A DNA stretch of 61,913 nucleotides, the filler included, from Globobulimina sp. (taxonomy: Eukaryota), in assembly GCA_003354225.1 (NCBI GenBank). It is 29 parts of 29 records of this genome, joined end to end, with 100 filler letters (N's around TTAATTAATTAA, not from the genome) between each part and the next. Parts side by side here need not be neighbours in the genome. Positions count along the whole stretch, not along the records: positions 32,085 to 34,122 come from PIVH01009526.1; 28 more parts are not named here. One strand, given 5' to 3'. The notes under the pieces are model-generated. The model ran no database searches and was not told the DNA's origin. It saw only the letters and a program-made list of their open reading frames with translations. This document shows, one piece after another, positions 2,560 to 55,502 of the stretch (positions are counted from its first letter, which is position 1; each line of letters starts with the position of its first letter). The position numbers and the translations under genes are program-made.

Positions 2560-4128
2560 ATGCCTCCTAAATATAAACCATCACAAGGAGATTTACACTT
2601 GTGGCTCAATCAACAGCAGTCGTATTCTGAACAAGCACAGGAGTATGAACAAAGAGCAGAAGAGTACAGCGTAAAGTTCTTAATCGAACAAAAAGAATTC
2701 ACAAAATTGGACAAACGTGATATATTTAAAGTACAGAACGAACTGGACGCTTTACTCACAAACTCATTACAAATAAATACAGATATCATATTGGCAACGG
2801 AACAAGATGACGAAAAGGAAGCAGTAAATAGAGGAAATAATTTGACAAAACAAATTCGAGGTTCGATGTCAACTCTTGAGCTTATTCTGCAAGAACAGGA
2901 AACAAAGGAAACACCAATAAAACAGATTGAAGTACAGGCACAACAACAGAATGGTGCAGAACAAACTCAATTAATACAGTTACTACAGCAACAGATGCTA
3001 GTACAGGAAAAGGCACGCGAGGATGCTAATAGACGTGCAGAGGAACAATTAACGTTACAGAGAGAGCAATTGCAGTTACAGCGAGAAGATACAGAGAAAC
3101 GGTCAAATGACCAAATGCAATTGATACAGGAACAGATAAAGGCTCAAACAGTCAGAGATCAAATCGCAGAAGAACGTATAGACAGTCATAACAAACTCCT
3201 CTATCAACAGTTAGAAGCACAACGTTTTGAATCAAATCGACAGCTTGAAATGACAGTAAATACGCACAAAGAACAAGTGGAAATATTAAACAGTCAAATA
3301 GAAAAACATACAGATAGCAATAGCAGTCAGTCCAGAAACGGAAACAAAACAGTCAAATTACCACAATTAATAATCGAACAGTTTTCTGGTGACATTTTAC
3401 GATGGCGTCAATTTTGGGACAGTTATAATACAGCAATACATTTAAATGAACGTCTCAGTAATATCGAAAAGTTTAACTATTTGAAAAGTTATTTAAGAGG
3501 CGACGCAATACGAGTATTAGACGGTGTGCCAATAACAGAAAACAATTATCAAGTAGCAATCGACTTGTTGACAAAAAATTACGGCAACGAAGGAGTAATT
3601 ATAGCTTCATATACCAACGATTTGTTAAATTTAGCCCCAATAGCAGACAATTACGTACAAATTAAACAGTTCTGTCATAAAGTTGAAGGACATATTCGTA
3701 GTCTACAGGCGCTGGGAGAGGACGTGCGTAAAAGTACAGCTATTATCGAGAGTATCCGAACGAAATTGCCATACAGAATTCGACACGATATATTCAAAGA
3801 TACAAAGGGAGAGAAAATTGGATCAACAAAAGTCATACTTGATAAGTTAAACGAGGAAATTAGAATACACCAAATAGAAACAGTCCCAAATACATCAAAA
3901 TCAAGGGAAGTCACTCAAAGTTTGCCACAGACTCTGCTTCACCTGCCCTCCATGACGAGTCTACGGAGGCACAGAACGAACCAGAATCAGATGGGAACAA
4001 CTTTTCATCTAAAGACAATCTTAAACCTGCTGACAATCATGTCAGTAAGGACAAGCAAGTTGCTTACCCGACTGAAGCACGGGAACGCCAAAAGGCCCGT
4101 GAGAAACGAGCCAAGGAAACAGGTGTGA
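2560..4128 (+). CDS. Bel/Pao Gag (DUF1759) with N-terminal coiled coil; probable -1 frame switch after ~3870
   Basis: VKLPQLIIEQFSGDILRWRQFWDSYNTAIHLNERLSNIEKFNYLKSYLRGDA...NYQVAIDLLTKNYG is the typical Pao Gag signature. Confidence 0.88.
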   Translation: MPPKYKPSQGDLHLWLNQQQSYSEQAQEYEQRAEEYSVKFLIEQKEFTKLDKRDIFKVQNELDALLTNSLQINTDIILATEQDDEKEAVNRGNNLTKQIRGSMSTLELILQEQETKETPIKQIEVQAQQQNGAEQTQLIQLLQQQMLVQEKAREDANRRAEEQLTLQREQLQLQREDTEKRSNDQMQLIQEQIKAQTVRDQIAEERIDSHNKLLYQQLEAQRFESNRQLEMTVNTHKEQVEILNSQIEKHTDSNSSQSRNGNKTVKLPQLIIEQFSGDILRWRQFWDSYNTAIHLNERLSNIEKFNYLKSYLRGDAIRVLDGVPITENNYQVAIDLLTKNYGNEGVIIASYTNDLLNLAPIADNYVQIKQFCHKVEGHIRSLQALGEDVRKSTAIIESIRTKLPYRIRHDIFKDTKGEKIGSTKVILDKLNEEIRIHQIETVPNTSKSREVTQSLPQTLLHLPSMTSLRRHRTNQNQMGTTFHLKTILNLLTIMSVRTSKLLTRLKHGNAKRPVRNEPRKQV

Positions 4129-4279: not shown

Positions 4280-6208
4280 TTTGGATCGTAAACCATATAA
4301 TCCAAAAACAAGTTATTCGTCCATGCTGTTTTAGAATCCAATCTCTCGACATATACATCAGCTGAATTCGCACTAATTGAACTTATCGTAGTTACGAATT
4401 GTTTTCCATCACATGCTGTATTTCTAACTGAAATGAATAATCTTGGAATTGCAGCAAATGCATTTTTGAATGTAATGGTGACCTTGACAGTGGATGCAGA
4501 ACCTGTTGGTTTTGGGATTGATACTGATCCAATCTGCTGCGTATCAACCAAGCGGGAATAAGTTGGATTATTAGTATCAAATACAAGGAAATCTAACAAT
4601 GGCTTTTGTCCCCATGCATTACTTCTATCCGCTCGGTAATATTGATAATTAAAACTGGGGACACTTTCTCCCGTATTCATACCGCATATCATTGCATTAA
4701 AAGTATCAGCGTATTGTCCTTGATCCGCATGTGTCTGTACAATAAAGCCTGGAGACGCATTTCTCGCTAATTTCTGTCGGAATTTAACATTTGTATTTTT
4801 ATTCTGAAGCGCTCCATTGTTGTTACTTCCTAATCTTAAGCGATTATCTGTTGCTGGTCGGAATATATAAGCTCCTGAGTTTGGATCGCCATCATTGTAA
4901 ATACCGCCCGATGGCACATATTGACTGAATTGGTGTTCGACTTGGAAGGTTTGGCCTAAATTATTATTTGTAATGGTCGCTAATCGGTTGCTTGTACCAT
5001 CCATTGTTAATGTATAATATCCGCCATTTCCAACTTTGAATGTTTCTCCATTGTGAATAGGGACAGTTTGTCCGACCACAGAATTGGTTGAATTGACCCC
5101 AATGAAAAATGTTTCGAAAGCTAAAGGTGCCATGTTTTCTGCAAATATAAATAAATTAAATTTATTCGGATATTGGAACATATTCTCCTGCTCCGCTACC
5201 GGATTGATTTGCGATTTCACAATGTTTTTTTTCGAATCATATACTATTAAATCGGATCTGTTTGCAGGAATTTGTAAGAATTCACTCACATTCCATGCCA
5301 AAGAATTGTAAGCAACCATAATAACAAAATTATTTGCTGTTAATTGCGAAATTAAATCGTTTTCGCGGATCAATTTTGGCATTGCACCTCCGGAGCCACG
5401 TAAAAATTGACCAACCACACTCTCATCCCAATGATCAATCCGTTTCGTGCCATTTGCTACATTTCAGTGCAATGTTGTATATACAAATGAAAAATATATA
5501 AATTGTGTACATACAAAGTTGAGTCATATACTCCTCAAACACCGCTGTTTTTTCTGTCCCAGTAACAGCGTCATGATGTTGGGAAACATCCAAAGCGTCT
5601 CTTAAAAAAGTGATATTAAACATTCCCGCTTTAAAATCTGCGCTAAAATTTAAGTTTTTTGCAAATAAATATAACTGCTCAGCGACGCGCAACTCATTCA
5701 TTCTTGACCTTGTATATAACTTTAATACCGGTCTTGACGTAAAATACCCGCTCCACCACGCATGGGCCCGATCGACATACGTGAAAAAATCAGGTTGTTC
5801 CAAATCCCATACTAAGTCCAAGTCATTTACAGCTTTGACGTAATCCGCCAATGACGAATATAAAATGGTGGCATTATAGGTGTTGTTGCTATTGATATAA
5901 TTAATCAATTTATCCATTTGTATATAGGACTGATAAGCGTTTTGATGTGCAAAATCTTCCCCAAATGGTATTAATAATTGATTATGTCTGTACCACGCAA
6001 GCCGTGTCCTGGAATCTCGAATTAATGACTCGGCGATGTCCACTTGATTCGGAGGGTAGGATGGCAACAATGGATCGGTATTAATCCAACTGGCACCATT
6101 CCAAAACTCCATTTCTCGCGGACAGCCATAGCCACTGTCTAAAATATGAAAAAATATATAACCTTCTTCGCCTAATGAGTTTGAACCTTTCCATATAAAC
6201 TCTAAATC
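4280..6208 (-). CDS. GH38 lysosomal-type alpha-mannosidase (partial; intron 5514-5457) with inserted H-type lectin-like repeats
   Basis: Motifs LEFIWKGS, FGEDF, DFFTY...WWSGYFTSRP, QHHDAVTGT and SGAYIFRP. A 58-nt GTATGT..GTAG intron joins ORFs 5435..6112 and 4228..5418 in frame. Confidence 0.92.
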
Positions 6209-31968: not shown

Positions 31969-32123
31969 ATTATTATTATTATGGNNNNNNNNNNNNNNNN
32001 NNNNNNNNNNNNNNNNNNNNNNNNNNNNTTAATTAATTAANNNNNNNNNNNNNNNNNNNNNNNNNNNNNNNNNNNNNNNNNNNNTCAAAAAAAACACAAA
32101 TTGATAGTGTATGGTATGGATTA

Positions 32124-33703
32124 ATGTTTTATGCCATCCAATTTCTGGTTGTTGCAAGCGATATTAATGTATTTGTGGAAATAATGTTGAACAATGAGCC
32201 TGGAATCTGTACAGATTTATTGCCTGGATTCTGTCCATCGCATTTGTTATGTCCAAAAATATTACGAAATCCAAACAATATCCGAGATAAACGGTCCTAT
32301 TGTCCCGATATTAAAGTCGTATTAGATTTGCCGCCATTTAATGAAATCAGAGATTATAAACAATCATTATACGACCGTGCCAACTCGCAGTTTGATGGTG
32401 GTGGCGAACTGAAGCCTGAATCCATAAGCATTGACAAGAAAGTATGCCGTTTGCAATGTGAGATTGAATTGGATCAACATACAGAAGTGGTGGGGAGTGT
32501 ATTTGACATCGCATTCGACGGCAAGATCACCACAGATATTGCTTATTTAGAGCCGCAGCATATTGCCATGGAGAATGGTTTCCAGATTGGAATGATTTAT
32601 GGGCCATCGGGCAGTGGCAAAACAACCACTGGCGAACGCTTGTTTGGAAGGATTAATGTGTTTCAATGGGATGGAAATAAACGAATCTGTCAACATTTCA
32701 GATCGTTGCAGGATATGGAGGAGAAGTTCGAAGCCTGTTCGTTGAGTGTCACGTTGGGTTTGAGCACATACTCACAATTATCGCAAGGCGAACAGGATCG
32801 GGTTAATATTGCTATACAGTTAGGACGGGATAGCATATTAATTGATGAGTTTACATCTAATTTGGATCGGGCGACTGCGAAGAAATTAGCGTTGGGGGTT
32901 GGAGCTTATATTCGTTGTCGTGTCATTGTGATTTCATTGCCGAGTTACAACCAAATTGGTTGTTTGATATCGAACATAAAAAAGTAAGGAGATATATGGT
33001 TAGTTCTGCACTTAGGCCGCCGTTATATGATAATAATAGGAATAGAATGGAACAAAAACATGAATATATTGATCATGAAACCATGTGGAAACTACCAGTG
33101 ATTCGGTTATATTTACGACCGACATTTTGGAACGATTTTAAACCAAAATTCTCCAAATTTCATTACATGACATCAGATATAGCTGTGTCTGCGTTGTGTT
33201 TTACAGTGTGGGCGGATTTTAAAGGCGGGGAAGCAAGAAATGAGCAGGAAATTGTTGGATTTATCAGTGTAATGAGCAATCCGTTTGTCGATACCCCACA
33301 TATGACAGACGAGCACAGGTTTCATTTTCGTGAACATCGCACTGTCATATTACCGGCATATCAAGGCTTGGGATTTGGTTCTCGAGTATGTGATGCCGTG
33401 GCGACCTATTTAGCAATGTATGGCAAACGATTGCAATCAAAAACTGCGCATCCTCGTTATGGCAAATATAGAGATAACTCACCGTTGTGGATGGCATTGG
33501 GGACAAATCATCAGAGACAGAAAAGAAATAAATGGAAAAATGAATCGGAGCGGAGAAGAGGAGTAAAAACAGAATCTGAAGAGCAAGGTAAAATATTTTA
33601 TTCTCATGTGTTCAAATTAAAACATCAAAGAAGTGCAGAGGATCAACAATATTTGGATCAAAGGGTTATTGTTGTTAAAAAAAATATGGATTCATTTGAT
33701 TGA
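32124..33703 (+). CDS. Soluble ABC ATPase + GNAT (Mom-like) acetyltransferase, split into two overlapping frames at ~32915
   Basis: Walker A GPSGSGKT, signature LSQGE, Walker B/D-loop ILIDEFTSNLDR. The -1 frame supplies the H-loop SCHCDF...LQPNW, then FHY, REHRTVILPAYQGLGFG and KTAHP. Confidence 0.85.
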
Positions 33704-33912
33704 TTGATAATGTGCCATTTTGTTGTTGTGTTTTTTTATTGTGTCAAAGATTTCATTGTGTCTTAAATGTCATAATACTTTCTATTTATTAACTTTCTAT
33801 TTATCCGACCCTGAAAACTGTAAAATTGGAAAACTGTTCGTACCATCGACCATTTTGCAGACACAGTCAAATATTTGAAAGCAAACACAGTCATATATTA
33901 AGCGCAACAGTC

Positions 33913-34122
33913 ATGATGAGCTCTCGCTTCTGTGTAAATATTATTAATTATAACTTGTGTTTATTGTAGCACAGCACAGAAATACATCTTTGCTAATAAA
34001 TCATTAGCATTTGCTGATGCAGACGCGTATTGCTCATTTAATTATGGTACATCTTTGGCATCAATACACAACCAAGTTGACAATGAAGAGGCAAAATCAT
34101 TATGTTCAAACAATACACTAAA
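33913..34122 (+). CDS. Secreted C-type lectin domain protein, 5' part (1-nt frame break in the signal peptide)
   Basis: ILLIITCVYCSTAQKYIFANKSLAFADADAYCSFNYGTSLASIHNQVDNEEAKSLC matches the CTLD pattern 'A..yC....g.LAsI.n..eN'. Confidence 0.75.
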
Positions 34123-34222: not shown

Positions 34223-34399
34223 TATGGCCATATCGATTTTAAACTGGGCACAACCTTAGGAATTATACAAGCAATAGGCGTTGTGATGGGTGCCTGGATT
34301 GCCCATAAGATTCCCGCAAAGCAATTGCGTCAAACTGTGGCTATAGCACTCGTTAGTGTTGGCCTGTTTTTAATAGGCCGAACACTTTTAGGTGTATGA
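34223..34399 (+). CDS. Bacterial TauE/SafE (TSUP) membrane protein, C-terminus
   Basis: YGHIDFKLGTTLGIIQAIGVVMGAWIAHKIPAKQLRQTVAIALVSVGLFL. Confidence 0.75.
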   Translation, partial: YGHIDFKLGTTLGIIQAIGVVMGAWIAHKIPAKQLRQTVAIALVSVGLFLIGRTLLGV

Positions 34400-34803
34400 T
34401 CCCCCATAGTTTTCAGTATAGAGGCTTCACTTGGTGTACAGAATACCGAGGGAAGATAGGGTCACCTGTTAAAATGTATTGAGTGCCTGACCTACTGAGA
34501 CTGATTTACTGAGAATCATATAAGTAGCGATTAATTTTGAATCTACTCAACAAAATTGATAATTATAATCAAATGCGTTTTTGCAGAATTGGTTCATATG
34601 AACCGATAATGGTGGTGCATATGAACCATATACCTAATTTTACATGCAAAATAATGAATACTAATACCTCCAAACGCATTGGTAATCGGTCTTATCCCAA
34701 ATAAAAAGCAGACAGGTATTCTTTTTGCAACCTTATTTTTGCAACCATGGTTATTATGATTAATTGATGAGCCCAAACAGGGGTGGAATAAAGGATAAAG
34801 CCT

Positions 34804-35004
34804 ATGACATACAAACCCTCGACATGTCCTCACTGTGGTGGAATGGAGTTTCATCCTTGCCAAGATGCATATGTAAACAGCATACTTTACCAGGCGAGCG
34901 TACTGGTTATTTGCCAGAAGTGTTACAATCTCATGGTAGTTAAACCTAGCCCGGCAATATCCTCGAAAGAGGCAAATCAACAACACTATTCGATTACAAA
35001 ATGA
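34804..35004 (+). CDS. Small zinc-ribbon protein (bacterial)
   Basis: CPHC...CQKC; AAGGA RBS-like sequence upstream. Confidence 0.5.
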   Translation: MTYKPSTCPHCGGMEFHPCQDAYVNSILYQASVLVICQKCYNLMVVKPSPAISSKEANQQHYSITK

Positions 35005-35431
35005 CATATTGTTTTAACACCATGTTATCTTTTAATAAATATAATAAAACTCAATGAGAATTGTTCTATGGATAACTGCAATCATACATCTGAAGTATCA
35101 CTTATACCATTTTTAATCCTGATAAAGATTTGACGATATTTAAAATTTTAAGAAGTCGGGACTTCTGACTAAAATCACTGCCATACCTTAGGTAGGTGTC
35201 GTGTAATTATTCTCCCCAAAAAAAGTTATTTAGGTATATTAAATCACAATAATTTATATTTTTTCATATCTCTTTACAGGTATCAGAGATGTTGATATGC
35301 CATTGTAAATCAGACTTTTAATTCATTTGGTCGGATGATATTTAAAATTACAAGGTATTCAGGACTAGCCATTAACAGGTTAGGCCTCAATAGCATATCT
35401 AAGATATGAATATGTTGGAAAGTTATAAATT

Positions 35432-35929
35432 ATGGCAAGGCTGAAACAACAATACAAAGGAAACGGCTTTTATGGAATTGGTATCCTAAACAATGCGAAT
35501 GAATTTAACATCGGCACGTTGTGGCGGTCTGCATATATCTTGGGGGCATCTTTTATTTTTACGGTAACAAAGAAATATAAGCCTCAAAGCAGTGATGTAA
35601 CCAAAGCATGGACAAAGATCCCTTTATATCATTATACAACGATCGATGAATTAAAAAACAACTTACCCCATTCAACAAAATTAATTGGTGTTGAAATGGC
35701 AAAGCAGTCAATCCCTTTAAGTCAATTTGAACATCCAATTAGGTGCGTCTATTTACTTGGGAATGAACGATTTGGCTTATCTGATAATATTCTTAACGCG
35801 TGTGAGTCAGTCATAAAACTGCCGGGAGAGTTCAGCCTGAATGTGGCTGTAGCCGGTAGTATACTAATGTATGATAGAGTGTCAAAAATGAGGGACTCCA
35901 TTTGTGACTTGAGTGATAGAACTCAATAA
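35432..35929 (+). CDS. SpoU/TrmH family RNA 2'-O-methyltransferase (bacterial)
   Basis: NIGTLWRSA, LLGNERFGL and SLNVAVAGSILMYDR SPOUT motifs. Confidence 0.93.
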   Translation: MARLKQQYKGNGFYGIGILNNANEFNIGTLWRSAYILGASFIFTVTKKYKPQSSDVTKAWTKIPLYHYTTIDELKNNLPHSTKLIGVEMAKQSIPLSQFEHPIRCVYLLGNERFGLSDNILNACESVIKLPGEFSLNVAVAGSILMYDRVSKMRDSICDLSDRTQ

Positions 35930-36150
35930 TGACCCTGCTGCCGGAAAAACAGAGAATGTTAACGGTTTAACTATATTTTCTGATAATGTTAATTGAGTAC
36001 ATTTGCCCACATTCAAACTTATATTATGTTAAACCATAGAATAATCAATATTACTAAAAGGTTATGTTAGTCATTTTTTTTGCACTTATTTTATAGACTT
36101 GGTAAACTAATCACTCATAATTGATTATTATTCAATATAGGAGTTGCAAA

Positions 36151-36260
36151 ATGAGGAATAAATGGGCGAATAAGTGTTTATTGTTTTTTAAGGGATGGGG
36201 CATAACTTTCATTGTTGCTCTTTTGATTACGACATCATTCAAATCAGCAATTGCAGACTG
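36151..36260 (+). CDS. lepB: Signal peptidase I, N-terminus (bacterial, truncated)
   Basis: AGGAG RBS; TM followed by SFKSAIAD(W), which precedes the catalytic Ser box. Confidence 0.7.
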
Positions 36261-53464: not shown

Positions 53465-55502
53465 ATTACTGCCGCTTGGGATCAATAATATCCATTCAAA
53501 AAACCCCCAATGCTGACACACCAAACCAATATAGACCCATAACATTGCTGCCAATAATATTCAAAGCCTACGAAAGACTCATACTGTGGCACATGAACAT
53601 CAACCATAAATTCAGGAAAAATCTGCACATATTGCAAGGTGGCAACAGAGCCCGTCGAGGTGTCCCTGAACAATTAGGCACTCTCCATCTCGTCTCTGAA
53701 ACTGCAACAAAACACAACAAACCCCTTTACTGCGCTTCCTTAGATATTAAGAAGGCATTTGACACCGTTTGGAGGAAGGGTCTGTTTTACAAATTGCACC
53801 ATAATTTTAAAATCCCTATAAATCTCTGCAGACTCATCAAAGCCATCTACAATAACTCCCATTCTGCCATACGAGACGTTCCATTCATCACTCAATTGTT
53901 CCAATTACAGAACGGAGTCCTTCAGGGTTCAGTCCTAAGCCCCATTCTCTTTGCTGCATTCATCAATGATATGATTGACATTCTACAACAGTCCCAAAAA
54001 GGAGCCATCTCACCAGATCCAAACCAACTAATTTCCTGCATTTTTTATGCTGATGATGTGGTTTTGGTTGCTAACACCATAGACAATCTCGCCGCGCTTT
54101 TAAAAATATGTGAGCAGCACAGTAATAACTGGGCGTACAATTTTAACGCCAAAAAATGCAAAATGATGATCTATAATGACCCTTCGACCCTCACCAACAA
54201 CACACACCACCACAGCACTGCGCAAAAAACAAAGTTAACCATCGAATATCACTCCAGAATCCCAGATCCCACCCACAAGCAAGCACCCATGGTTCTGATA
54301 AAGCACATAACAAATGATCAAATAATGGCCATCGATATTGATGGCATAGTCTGTTCATACCGCACCAATGAGATACCATCTGACATATTAAATGATTTCA
54401 AATCACATTGCAAATACTATAAAAATAAAATTTCAAACAAACCATTTCATATAATATGGCAAAACATAATAGAGGACCATAGCTGGTCTATTTCCAAAAT
54501 GCACCATCTCTGCCAAATGAATAATAAACCATTACAGATTGTCACCTTCCTTCGCTATCTTGGTGCGCATCTCTGTTCCTATGATGCAGACAATCTAGTT
54601 TCCACGACTTGCACCAATAATGTATTCCTCAACAAATTAGATCAGAAAGCCAGAATACTTTCACAGCTGGACTTTAACCATGATTTTATCTCGTTAAGCG
54701 ATAAAATACGTCTCTTAAAAACTTTCTACTTAGTTTATACCGAAATATTCGCTCAAGTTCTAGATAGCAAAGCAATAAACTTAACAGCTGCAACAGAGAA
54801 ACAAATAAAAATAATTGCCAAACACACCAAAATAAAACACTTTGTCTTTGAACAATTCTCAATATTTGCAGGCATCCCTTCACCTCTTGAGCGATGGGTG
54901 GTGCTTAAATTGGCCTTTTATTGGAAGCTACGCCATATTAAACCTATCTCCTACATGCATATCTGGTCCCTGCTCCCTAACATTACCGATTACGTCCTTT
55001 ACAAACAATATATAGACCTAAAAAATCATTGGTTGCCGACTACCCTCCAAATAAGCAATGACATCCCAATCACTGTTGATCCCTTCAATAAAGTCACGGG
55101 CCCTTCAGAACTCCGCCCCATTATAGTAACCAAACAACACCGTGAATTAGTGTCTACTTTCAATGACAAACATCCCCTCAAAGTCCTACAGCACCATTTG
55201 TCCGATTACAAAGCAATGAACACCTATGAAGTTCAAGACTTAGCAGATTATGTAAATAAAAAAATGGTACTCCAATACCGCGAATTATTCTACTTTTTCA
55301 ACCAAAAACCAAACTTCTGCAAATTGTGCCAACACCAAACCCAACATCCGATTGAATATCATCTCTGTATCAGTTGCCCCACCCTTCAGCGTTTCAGACA
55401 TTCCTATTGGAATAATGCGAGATTGGCCCTCTCCAAAATTGGCTCCAAAATAAATAGATGCCATAATCAAATCTTTATGCAGAGAGTGATTGAATTCCTC
55501 TC
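53465..55502 (+). mobile_element. Non-LTR retrotransposon (LINE) ORF2 fragment: RT and C-terminal Cys/His finger
   Basis: YRPITLL, LDIKKAFDTV, GVLQGSVLSPILF, YADD, RYLG, CKLC...HLCISCP; uninterrupted frame. Confidence 0.95.

Follow-up and report, generated by a model that had tools for sequence, protein, structure and literature searches.

The locus at positions 32,124 to 33,703 of the Globobulimina sp. stretch analysed here (assembly GCA_003354225.1; the whole stretch of 61,913 bases is hereafter the window) raises two questions: how a protist contig comes to encode an ATP-binding cassette (ABC) ATPase together with a GCN5-related N-acetyltransferase (GNAT), in a combination common to phages and bacteria, and what such a protein would do. 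By comparison with its relatives, the contig is identified as carrying the 3' two-thirds (linker, second ABC, GNAT and tail) of a eukaryotic, foraminifer-type ABC-ABC-GNAT gene. With moderate confidence we favour the reading that it holds a broken partial copy of this eukaryotic tandem gene, belonging to a phage-related family whose putative activity is acylation of a base by means of an ATP-driven clamp.

The window does not represent one molecule: it strings together 29 segments of 2037-2040 bp in order of descending length, with 28 identical artificial spacers (N44-TTAATTAATTAA-N44) between them. The ABC-GNAT locus lies entirely within the segment 32085-34122 (PIVH01009526.1; 2038 bp, 37% G+C). 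As the 29 segments are unlinked, context across a spacer is invalid and that of the locus is limited to 32085-34122.

A broken gene of the foraminiferal ABC-ABC-GNAT type

The locus is covered by two open reading frames (ORFs). ORF A (32124-32987), the frame of which is open back to the first base of the contig, contains the motifs GPSGSGKT (32601-32624), LSQGE (32778-32792) and ILIDEFTSNLDR (32835-32870), and ORF B (32915-33703) contains SCH (32918-32926), then ..LQPNW, FHY, RTVILPAYQGLGFG (33338-33379) and KTAHP. The motif series quoted in the initial annotation is thus present in full, but its description of the ABC part as running into the GNAT has to be given up, the halves being in different frames with a frameshift at 32915/32916. 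Against the window, the Pfam model ABC_tran scored 22.3 bits (E 2.1e-4), under its 25-bit cut-off, and Acetyltransf_1 scored 25.2 bits (E 2.2e-5), over its cut-off of 20.7. Both halves were also matched by phrog_11143, a PHROG phage family of 357 positions annotated as 'unknown function', ORF A aligning with its positions 6-159 (E 3.6e-26) and ORF B with its positions 189-349 (E 1.6e-23). Since these matches are colinear over both halves, the assignment to ABC and GNAT is far beyond chance. The observation is real and specific, and the gene is interrupted; apart from the lesions described below, no stop occurs within either half and all catalytic motifs are retained. As had been proposed, phrog_11143 and its relatives point to a fusion of a soluble ABC ATPase with a GNAT, from a family that phages and bacteria share.

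A search among 762 proteins of similar length gave 53 matches at E<=0.001. Fragments make up the top five (50-68% identity), one of them from the foraminifer Nonionella stella (EukProt), and the remainder are ABC+GNAT fusions of ~355-390 aa with ~36% identity to the window. Among 4634 longer candidates there were 14 matches, including P0075 (1295 aa, 63% identity; EukProt P097642) and P0078 (1233 aa; P013320) of N. stella and P0081 (1594 aa; P015018) of Elphidium margaritaceum, the further ones being 596-1426 aa in length. These three and P0005 are EukProt transcriptome proteins. The window matches residues 811-1021 of P0075 with 63% identity over 220 aa and, colinearly, residues 1032-1294 with 59% identity over 268 aa, so that it runs parallel to the last 485 residues of P0075, tail and stop included. 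It differs from the foraminiferal tandem proteins, themselves unannotated transcriptome predictions, in having nothing upstream of the inter-ABC linker, in being frameshifted and in lacking 10 codons before the H-loop. The presence of 59-63% identical proteins in foraminiferal transcriptomes supports the eukaryotic residence of the gene that had been suggested. With a profile of the short family, the order ABC, ABC, GNAT was found in 12 of the 14 long proteins; P0079 is cut N-terminally, and P0086 and P0087 have a single ABC. The full-length layout is a variable N-terminus followed by ABC1, ABC2 and GNAT.

The state of the window copy was examined by aligning Logan contigs of four public runs to the contig at a 90% threshold. 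Run X1, with 93% of sampled words, is probably the assembly's own source run and so is not independent; X8 carries the label of the window organism and comes from another study, while X6 and X5 represent organisms C and B, respectively. Regions 32833-32968 and 33717-33852 in X5, 33717-33852 in X6 and most of the contig in X8 were uncovered, possibly being too diverged for the threshold. Contigs of X6 and X8, 90-95% alike to the window, carry 28 extra nucleotides (nt) directly behind 32915. This position is a codon end in ORF A (32915-32124=791), and because 791+28=819 is divisible by 3, reading enters the frame of ORF B once the 28 nt are present. The nine codons added in X6 and X8 correspond to ten residues of P0075 (1022-1031) which are missing from the window; the deletion of 28 nt takes out the strand preceding the H-loop and changes the reading frame. 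A 585-nt contig of X1 is identical to the window across the gap, with 0 differences. Differences of X6 from the window in ORF B, among the 21 rows listed, fall on third (11), second (6) and first (4) codon positions.

The 5' end shows a further lesion. In BLASTP, similarity to P0075 sets in only at window residue 58 (32256), and the preceding 32085-32255 is repeated sequence or a rearrangement or assembly junction. In the three runs covering both, the depth of 32085-32205 is 2-5x that of the gene segment behind it, branch points of contigs lie at 32160, 32205 and 32254/5, and the 57 aa encoded by 32085-32255 have no Pfam match and no second copy inside the window. The 121-nt stretch 32085-32205 also occurs within longer contigs of X1 (1166 nt), X5 (1578 nt) and X8 (1733 nt), which diverge on at least one side. 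No first ABC domain stands directly upstream of the linker, as 32085-32255 is without similarity to ABC1 and an X1 contig spans 32160 through 32419 without ABC1; a loose end of X5 before 32254 resembles, in frame, the last part of ABC1 when compared with P0002 and P0075. The CCCH-like N-terminal extension which had been described at ~32196-32250 belongs to this non-homologous, high-depth sequence and lies outside the conserved protein, homology to which begins at 32256.

As assembled, the window copy is defective: it is frameshifted, with no single uninterrupted ORF for both domains, and truncated at the 5' end, ABC1 being replaced upstream of 32256. Our interpretation is that of a pseudogene or a paralogue in decay. 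Relatives retaining the 28 nt occur in other runs (X6 and X8), one of them with the same organism label. The features of the contig and its borders are as follows.

31985..32084, no strand: artificial spacer (N44 + TTAATTAATTAA + N44), dividing the contig from the unlinked preceding contig
32085..32255, + strand: 5' segment without homology to the ABC-GNAT family, in frame with ORF A (BLASTP, depth, Pfam)
32256..32915, + strand: linker between the ABC domains (KILRNPNN..DIKVVLDLPPF), followed by the second ABC ATPase domain as far as the break (63% identity to P0075 811-1021)
32601-32624, + strand: Walker A, GPSGSGKT (motif)
32778-32792, + strand: signature-like LSQGE (motif)
32835-32870, + strand: Walker B with catalytic Glu, and D-loop, ILIDEFTSNLDR (motif)
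32915..32916, + strand: site of the 28-nt deletion relative to the X6 and X8 contigs (contig comparison, frame arithmetic)
32918..33703, + strand: H-loop SCH (32918-32926), LQPNW, linker, GNAT domain and conserved C-terminal tail (phrog_11143, Acetyltransf_1, P0075)
33338-33379, + strand: acyl-CoA-binding motif RTVILPAYQGLGFG within the GNAT, between FHY and KTAHP (motif)
33701-33703, + strand: stop codon of the GNAT half (ORF B)
33704..33912, no strand: intergenic spacer of 209 nt; X1 has 7 extra nt behind 33787
33913..34122, + strand: start of a downstream ORF (ATG at 33913), signal-peptide-like at its start and cut by the contig end
34123..34222, no strand: artificial spacer, dividing the contig from the unlinked next contig

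Phage, prokaryotic and foraminiferal branches of the family

The single-ABC form of the family is abundant. A tblastn search with the family member P0008 matched 61 phage records, 28 of them with >=80% coverage, including Aeromonas PX29-like, Vibrio, Gordonia, Porphyromonas and Tenacibaculum pT24 phages. At least 443 relatives were found in IMG/VR viral contigs and at least 533 in GTDB prokaryotic genomes, and a representative library of 1.84 billion proteins held 1240 clusters (50% identity) at E<=1e-30 with both domains in one polypeptide. The phage proteins (phrog_11143; e.g. that of pT24) have the same two domains in the same order as the window, with the common motifs GPSGSGK, LSxGE, DEFTSxxDR, (S/T)CH..D..L.P(D/N)W, HHY, R.V.LP..QG.G.G and HP. 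Phage and bacterial forms have one ABC domain and ~350-400 aa, often with a ParB-like partner adjacent or fused, whereas the clade of the window has two tandem ABCs, no ParB-like part seen and, in some members, chromatin readers; the window is ~36% identical to the phage forms and its copy is broken.

Gene context was recorded for the best 80 viral (IMG/VR) and the best 80 prokaryotic (GTDB) loci, using a ParB-like hidden Markov model built from 12 ParB-like sequences. A ParB-like ORF is present in 71 of the 80 bacterial and archaeal genome loci, directly upstream by a strict rule in 59, fused in 1, and overlapping or within 1 kb in 11; forms of ~570-620 aa are ParB-like-ABC-GNAT fusions. Only 1 of the 80 viral loci has a ParB-like neighbour, and the ParB-like partner therefore marks a subgroup and not the whole family. 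Downstream of the genome loci, a small helix-turn-helix-like protein, which from its sequence may be a small terminase subunit, was found in 16/73, and a terminase-large-subunit-like protein matching the Axumite terminase in 10/73. In two of three annotated phages, Pasteurella Pmp13 and Gordonia Axumite, the end of a ParB-like gene extends into the ABC-GNAT gene and a terminase comes next; the third, Pseudomonas Komp_PAO1_1, has neither. The immediate neighbours in the viral loci are mainly replication genes, with Mom directly downstream of the ABC-GNAT gene in 3/77, ASCH/DUF3850 in the same place in 3/77 and a C5 DNA methylase neighbour in 1/77. Planctomycetota (Planctomycetaceae, Pirellulales, Tepidisphaerales, Gemmataceae and Phycisphaerales) dominate the GTDB loci, several of which lie on megabase contigs in the order ParB-like, ABC-GNAT, terminase-like and resemble prophages or prophage remnants.

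The tandem relatives have features of their own. ABC1 of the foraminiferal proteins retains its Walker A, signature and Walker B motifs but no longer has the H-loop histidine (ATSK/ASSK), which most of the ABC2 domains preserve. Chromo domains were identified in three of the seven long proteins scanned with Pfam (P0078, P0081 and P0088, the last with three copies), zf-CW was found under the Pfam cut-off in P0078, and P0202 (900 aa), a more distant relative, has a Tudor domain of the PTM/DIR17 type ahead of its ABC; the window contig ends or diverges short of the N-terminal part in which such readers lie. No ParB-like part was found on the contig or in the tandem relatives by Pfam or alignment. 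P0140 contains an intein (Hint and a LAGLIDADG homing endonuclease) ahead of its GNAT half.

The relationships of these forms were analysed in unrooted 'quick' IQ-TREE searches with SH-aLRT support. In a tree of 58 rows, the window is sister to P0075 (support 94; 70% identity over 350 columns) within a foraminiferal clade (99, starred), and a branch with support 94 has all 13 tandem rows on the same side. The tandem rows group with the stand-alone, ParB-less phage forms and are split from the ParB-associated forms with a support of 99 (starred). In a tree of the ABC domains only, ABC1 (9 rows, 90) and ABC2 (11 rows, 96, starred) form separate clades, which would fit one early duplication. The placement of the tandem forms on one side of a branch would likewise fit a single acquisition, and transfer from phage to eukaryote is the simpler reading because diversity is far greater in phages and bacteria; as the tree is unrooted, the direction is inferred. 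The position of the tandem forms beside a phage subgroup agrees with the horizontal acquisition that had been proposed.

Predicted structure, proposed mechanism and rival readings

An AlphaFold2 (AF2) model of P0008, made from an 18-sequence alignment, reached a pLDDT of 86.2 and a pTM of 0.80. In this model, residues 1-195 form a compact ABC nucleotide-binding domain (NBD; VIA-align: 1vpl, Z 12.6, root-mean-square deviation 3.6, 165 aligned), in agreement with Foldseek, and residues 196-355 form a GNAT (1y9k, Z 12.7; RimI 5isv, 11.9; Naa50 6yzz, 11.7; NatA 4kvm, 11.2). A sequence profile search of the PDB gave generic ABC NBDs only. The model of P0076, a tandem protein of 942 aa, has a pLDDT of 67.7, with its domains at ~80-90, and its best Foldseek matches are the soluble twin-NBD proteins ABCE1, MCR component A2, ABCF1, EttA and UvrA. 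Prediction of a complex of two P0008 copies gave scores of 0.37-0.39, with 0.62 for one control, a result neutral as to dimerisation.

ABC ATPases bring together two NBDs which sandwich two ATP head to tail, and soluble twin-NBD ABC proteins act on macromolecular complexes or DNA and not in transport. Such proteins (ABCE1/RLI, EttA, ABCF1, UvrA, MCR A2) resemble the tandem form in having two ABCs per chain and no membrane domains; aligned to the P0076 model over ~500-600 columns, they gave target-normalised TM-scores of 0.30-0.47 at 12-15% identity, and they differ in that none has a GNAT. TmcA/NAT10 (Kre33), RNA cytidine N4-acetyltransferases, are NTPase-GNAT fusions that use ATP hydrolysis and acetyl-CoA on a nucleic-acid base. 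The likeness is an analogy of working only, an NTPase fused to a GNAT: their ATPase is of the helicase type and not ABC, there is no homology beyond the GNAT superfamily, and families of the TmcA/NAT10 type are absent from the Pfam lists for both window halves.

The phage and bacterial system has been predicted in print. Iyer et al. are credited with predicting that a 'GNAT coupled with ABC ATPase' acylates a DNA base (PMC7824862, citing Iyer, Zhang, Burroughs & Aravind, 2013). PMC7824862 treats the ABC-coupled GNAT as a family separate from Mom of phage Mu, which it describes as a GNAT-superfamily enzyme acylating the N6 position of adenine in DNA. The literature to which the initial annotation referred does exist, and the system can no longer be called undescribed; the tandem, eukaryote-type clade with chromatin readers is possibly new. 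Searches aimed at the ABC-GNAT family found no experimental study, those on COG2401 or a chromodomain or foraminiferal ABC-acetyltransferase version found nothing relevant, and BREX and Dnd papers dealt with GNATs of other systems only. The epithet 'Mom-like' also had to be dropped. The Pfam model of Mom (PF25680) finds Mu Mom at 2.4e-75 and has no match at E<=1 in any of four family members (ORF B of the window, P0008, P0046 and P0049), hhalign of the family profile against Mu Mom gave a probability of 0.07% (E 0.71), and the source just cited keeps the families apart. Mu Mom and the phage ABC-GNAT are both phage GNAT-superfamily proteins proposed to acylate a DNA base, but the former, of 241 aa as annotated, matches the Mom model only and has no ATPase domain. 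PADLOC gave no full-length match to a defence protein: mads_3 and mads_8 are matched over short stretches of the P-loop and signature only, and ORF B has no match.

From these data the following mechanism may be proposed. The two ABC domains would close around ATP as a sandwich dimer, formed between two chains in the single-ABC phage form and within one chain in the tandem eukaryotic form, where one site would be degenerate because the foraminiferal ABC1 lacks the H-loop histidine. The ATP-driven clamp would grip a polymer substrate, most likely DNA, and position or flip the target for the GNAT, which would move an acyl group from acyl-CoA to the exocyclic amine of a base. In phages, the DNA would be delivered by the ParB-like partner, and in eukaryotes Chromo- or Tudor-type readers would steer the enzyme to particular chromatin.

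Several points weigh against the favoured reading, some against the status of the contig and others against the DNA substrate. Pseudogene status is drawn from contigs, the sole run agreeing at the deletion (X1) is not independent, and with a sequencing depth of ~5.7 over the break the 28-nt loss could be an artefact of amplification or assembly. The gene could thus be intact and functional, with the gap, the junction at ~32255 and the frameshift in the lectin-like ORF downstream all arising from a low-coverage, fragmented and possibly amplified assembly or from collapsed paralogues. The contig is indeed one of many ~2-kb pieces of a highly fragmented assembly, the branching at 32160, 32205 and 32254 is typical of graph ambiguity at repeats, frame errors in both genes of the contig relative to other runs could mean poor sequence quality, and beyond the lesions the halves are free of stops with their catalytic motifs kept. 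However, the Logan re-assembly of X1 reproduces the break exactly, the X1 contig across the 5' junction lacks ABC1, and a clean loss of 28 nt is atypical of short-read error; moreover, X8, with the same organism label, holds a distinct 90-95% copy with the 28 nt, and there are therefore two different copies and not one mis-assembled. An intact gene is considered unlikely, if deserving of serious weight. None of the listed runs is recorded as RNA and the 'RNA' labels of X6-X8 are guesses, which makes the expression of the intact relatives only putative. The trees, too, are unrooted quick searches in which the tandem rows P0084 and P0088 are long or unresolved, and P0076, P0077, P0079, P0080, P0082-P0085 and P0088 are called 'eukaryotic' by architecture and clade only. 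Contamination of the assembly by phage, bacterial or giant-virus DNA would account for a family that is mainly viral and bacterial, for bacterial-looking contigs such as the next one (TauE C-terminus and SpoU methylase) and for a contig on which neither a spliceosomal intron nor any other feature exclusive to eukaryotes was demonstrated. We hold this to be very improbable: the nearest relatives, at 59-71% identity, are tandem forms from foraminiferal transcriptomes (EukProt/MMETSP), as against ~36% for phages, the linker between the ABCs, specific to the eukaryotic forms, is present in the window copy, Chromo, zf-CW and Tudor domains are found in the tandem clade, and eukaryotic-type domains and retroelements (PI3K_rbd, SPRY, VIT+VWA, DUF1759, RVT_1) occur on other window contigs. 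The clade as a whole could still be of giant-virus origin. That the locus is nothing more than an ordinary ABC-transporter ATPase subunit beside an ordinary protein N-acetyltransferase is scarcely credible, even if Pfam, NCBIfam and PDB searches return transporter NBDs as generic best ABC matches. The NCBIfam matches are far under their curated cut-offs (e.g. 29 bits against 750), both domains form one conserved polypeptide throughout the 1240 clusters, the family has its own signature motifs, and no permease or membrane-domain gene was found among the annotated neighbours of the three phage loci or the top neighbour families listed.

DNA as the substrate is deduced from gene context and one computational prediction, and the near absence of ParB-like genes from the viral loci, the subgroup nearest the eukaryotic clade, means that the other subgroup supplies the strongest DNA-context argument. 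Histone-modifying enzymes have Chromo, zf-CW and Tudor domains as classic companions, and fusions of the Chromo type would suit an acetyltransferase of histones or other proteins just as well. The family may thus acylate proteins, namely histones or chromatin proteins in eukaryotes and the ParB-like partner or terminase in phages, with the ABC dimer acting as an ATP-gated clamp or chaperone. The nearest GNAT structures point the same way, being protein N-alpha-acetyltransferases and small-molecule GNATs (RimI, Naa50, NatA and IAA acetyltransferase), as does the lack of any sequence or profile link to Mom, the one GNAT described as DNA-modifying. Yet many unrelated GNATs give Z scores of 11-12.7, generic values that cannot tell one substrate from another, and the ParB coupling, fusions included, together with terminase, replication, Mom, C5-methylase and ASCH neighbours, is the pattern of phage DNA modification; DNA-base acylation is also the sole published prediction (PMC7824862). 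A protein substrate is regarded as a genuine, though doubtful, possibility, and the base-acylation reading is retained.

The downstream ORF, other contigs and significance

The initial annotation had placed a secreted C-type lectin gene about 210 bp downstream. An ORF does start 209 nt away on the same contig, but its identity as a lectin was not confirmed and it is itself frame-shifted. A +1 frame change occurs near 33936, after 18 codons, leading into a weakly C-type-lectin-like stretch; X5 lacks 1 nt and X6 lacks 1+6 nt in this ORF, and either would join the parts in one frame. An intron at 33934-33969 (GT...AG) was considered and rejected, as splicing leaves an in-frame stop and relatives differ by 1 and 7 nt instead. 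The ORF has no Pfam match at E<=0.1, no homologue and no PDB sequence match; a lead from the ESM Atlas, with a score of 0.89, is sub-threshold (<0.9), with Lectin_C on 11-24% of cluster members, and only ~45 residues of the putative domain are on the contig. As to the proposed linkage to the GNAT, the end of the GNAT and the downstream ORF are bridged by a single contig (1552 nt, from 33435 onward), and this is from X1, probably the assembly's own source. The last 26 nt of the ORF (34097-34122) match 1878-1903 of the first contig on the opposite strand at 96%, which is possibly a paralogue or an overlapping contig end. On another contig, an ORF (4280-5418) has a weak H-type lectin match (E 1.6e-4).

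The unlinked neighbours of the ABC-GNAT contig are, by Pfam, a PI3K-like ORF upstream and a TauE/SpoU contig downstream. The latter (34223-36260) has a bacterial look, with the C-terminal end of a TauE/SafE-type exporter at 34223-34396 (E 1.3e-7) and a SpoU-family RNA methylase at 35432-35926 (E 2.5e-20), and the assembly may for this reason mix host contigs with bacterial ones from a symbiont or contaminant. Retroelement ORFs were found on separate contigs at 2560-4125 and 53476-55502, matching DUF1759 (E 2.5e-35), which we take to be a domain of gag-like proteins of BEL/Pao-type retrotransposons, and RVT_1 (E 5.6e-32). An Rfam scan of the whole window gave 0 matches, hence no rRNA. The window serves as a warning that concatenation of unlinked 2-kb contigs makes cross-contig context meaningless.

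The window locus, as a broken fragment, has little value in itself; its value is as a pointer to the family. The phage ABC-GNAT is very common, and it is among the few predicted DNA-modification enzymes for which no experimental test was found, and the tandem eukaryotic branch with Chromo and Tudor domains suggests that its chemistry was recruited to chromatin in protists. A bolder proposal, which we consider quite unlikely, is that Foraminifera and some other, probably protist, lineages domesticated a phage ABC-GNAT, doubled its ABC motor to form an asymmetric intramolecular twin-ABC clamp and in several members joined it to methyl-histone readers (Chromo, zf-CW, Tudor). The enzyme would then be an ATP-dependent writer of acyl marks on nuclear DNA, the window copy being a decayed paralogue from an expanded family. 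We know of no writer of the ABC-GNAT type for an acyl mark on eukaryotic DNA. If the proposal is true, the mark on nuclear DNA could be, for example, N4-acyl-cytosine or N6-acyl-adenine, and there would be two entry points to one reaction, phage DNA and foraminiferal chromatin.

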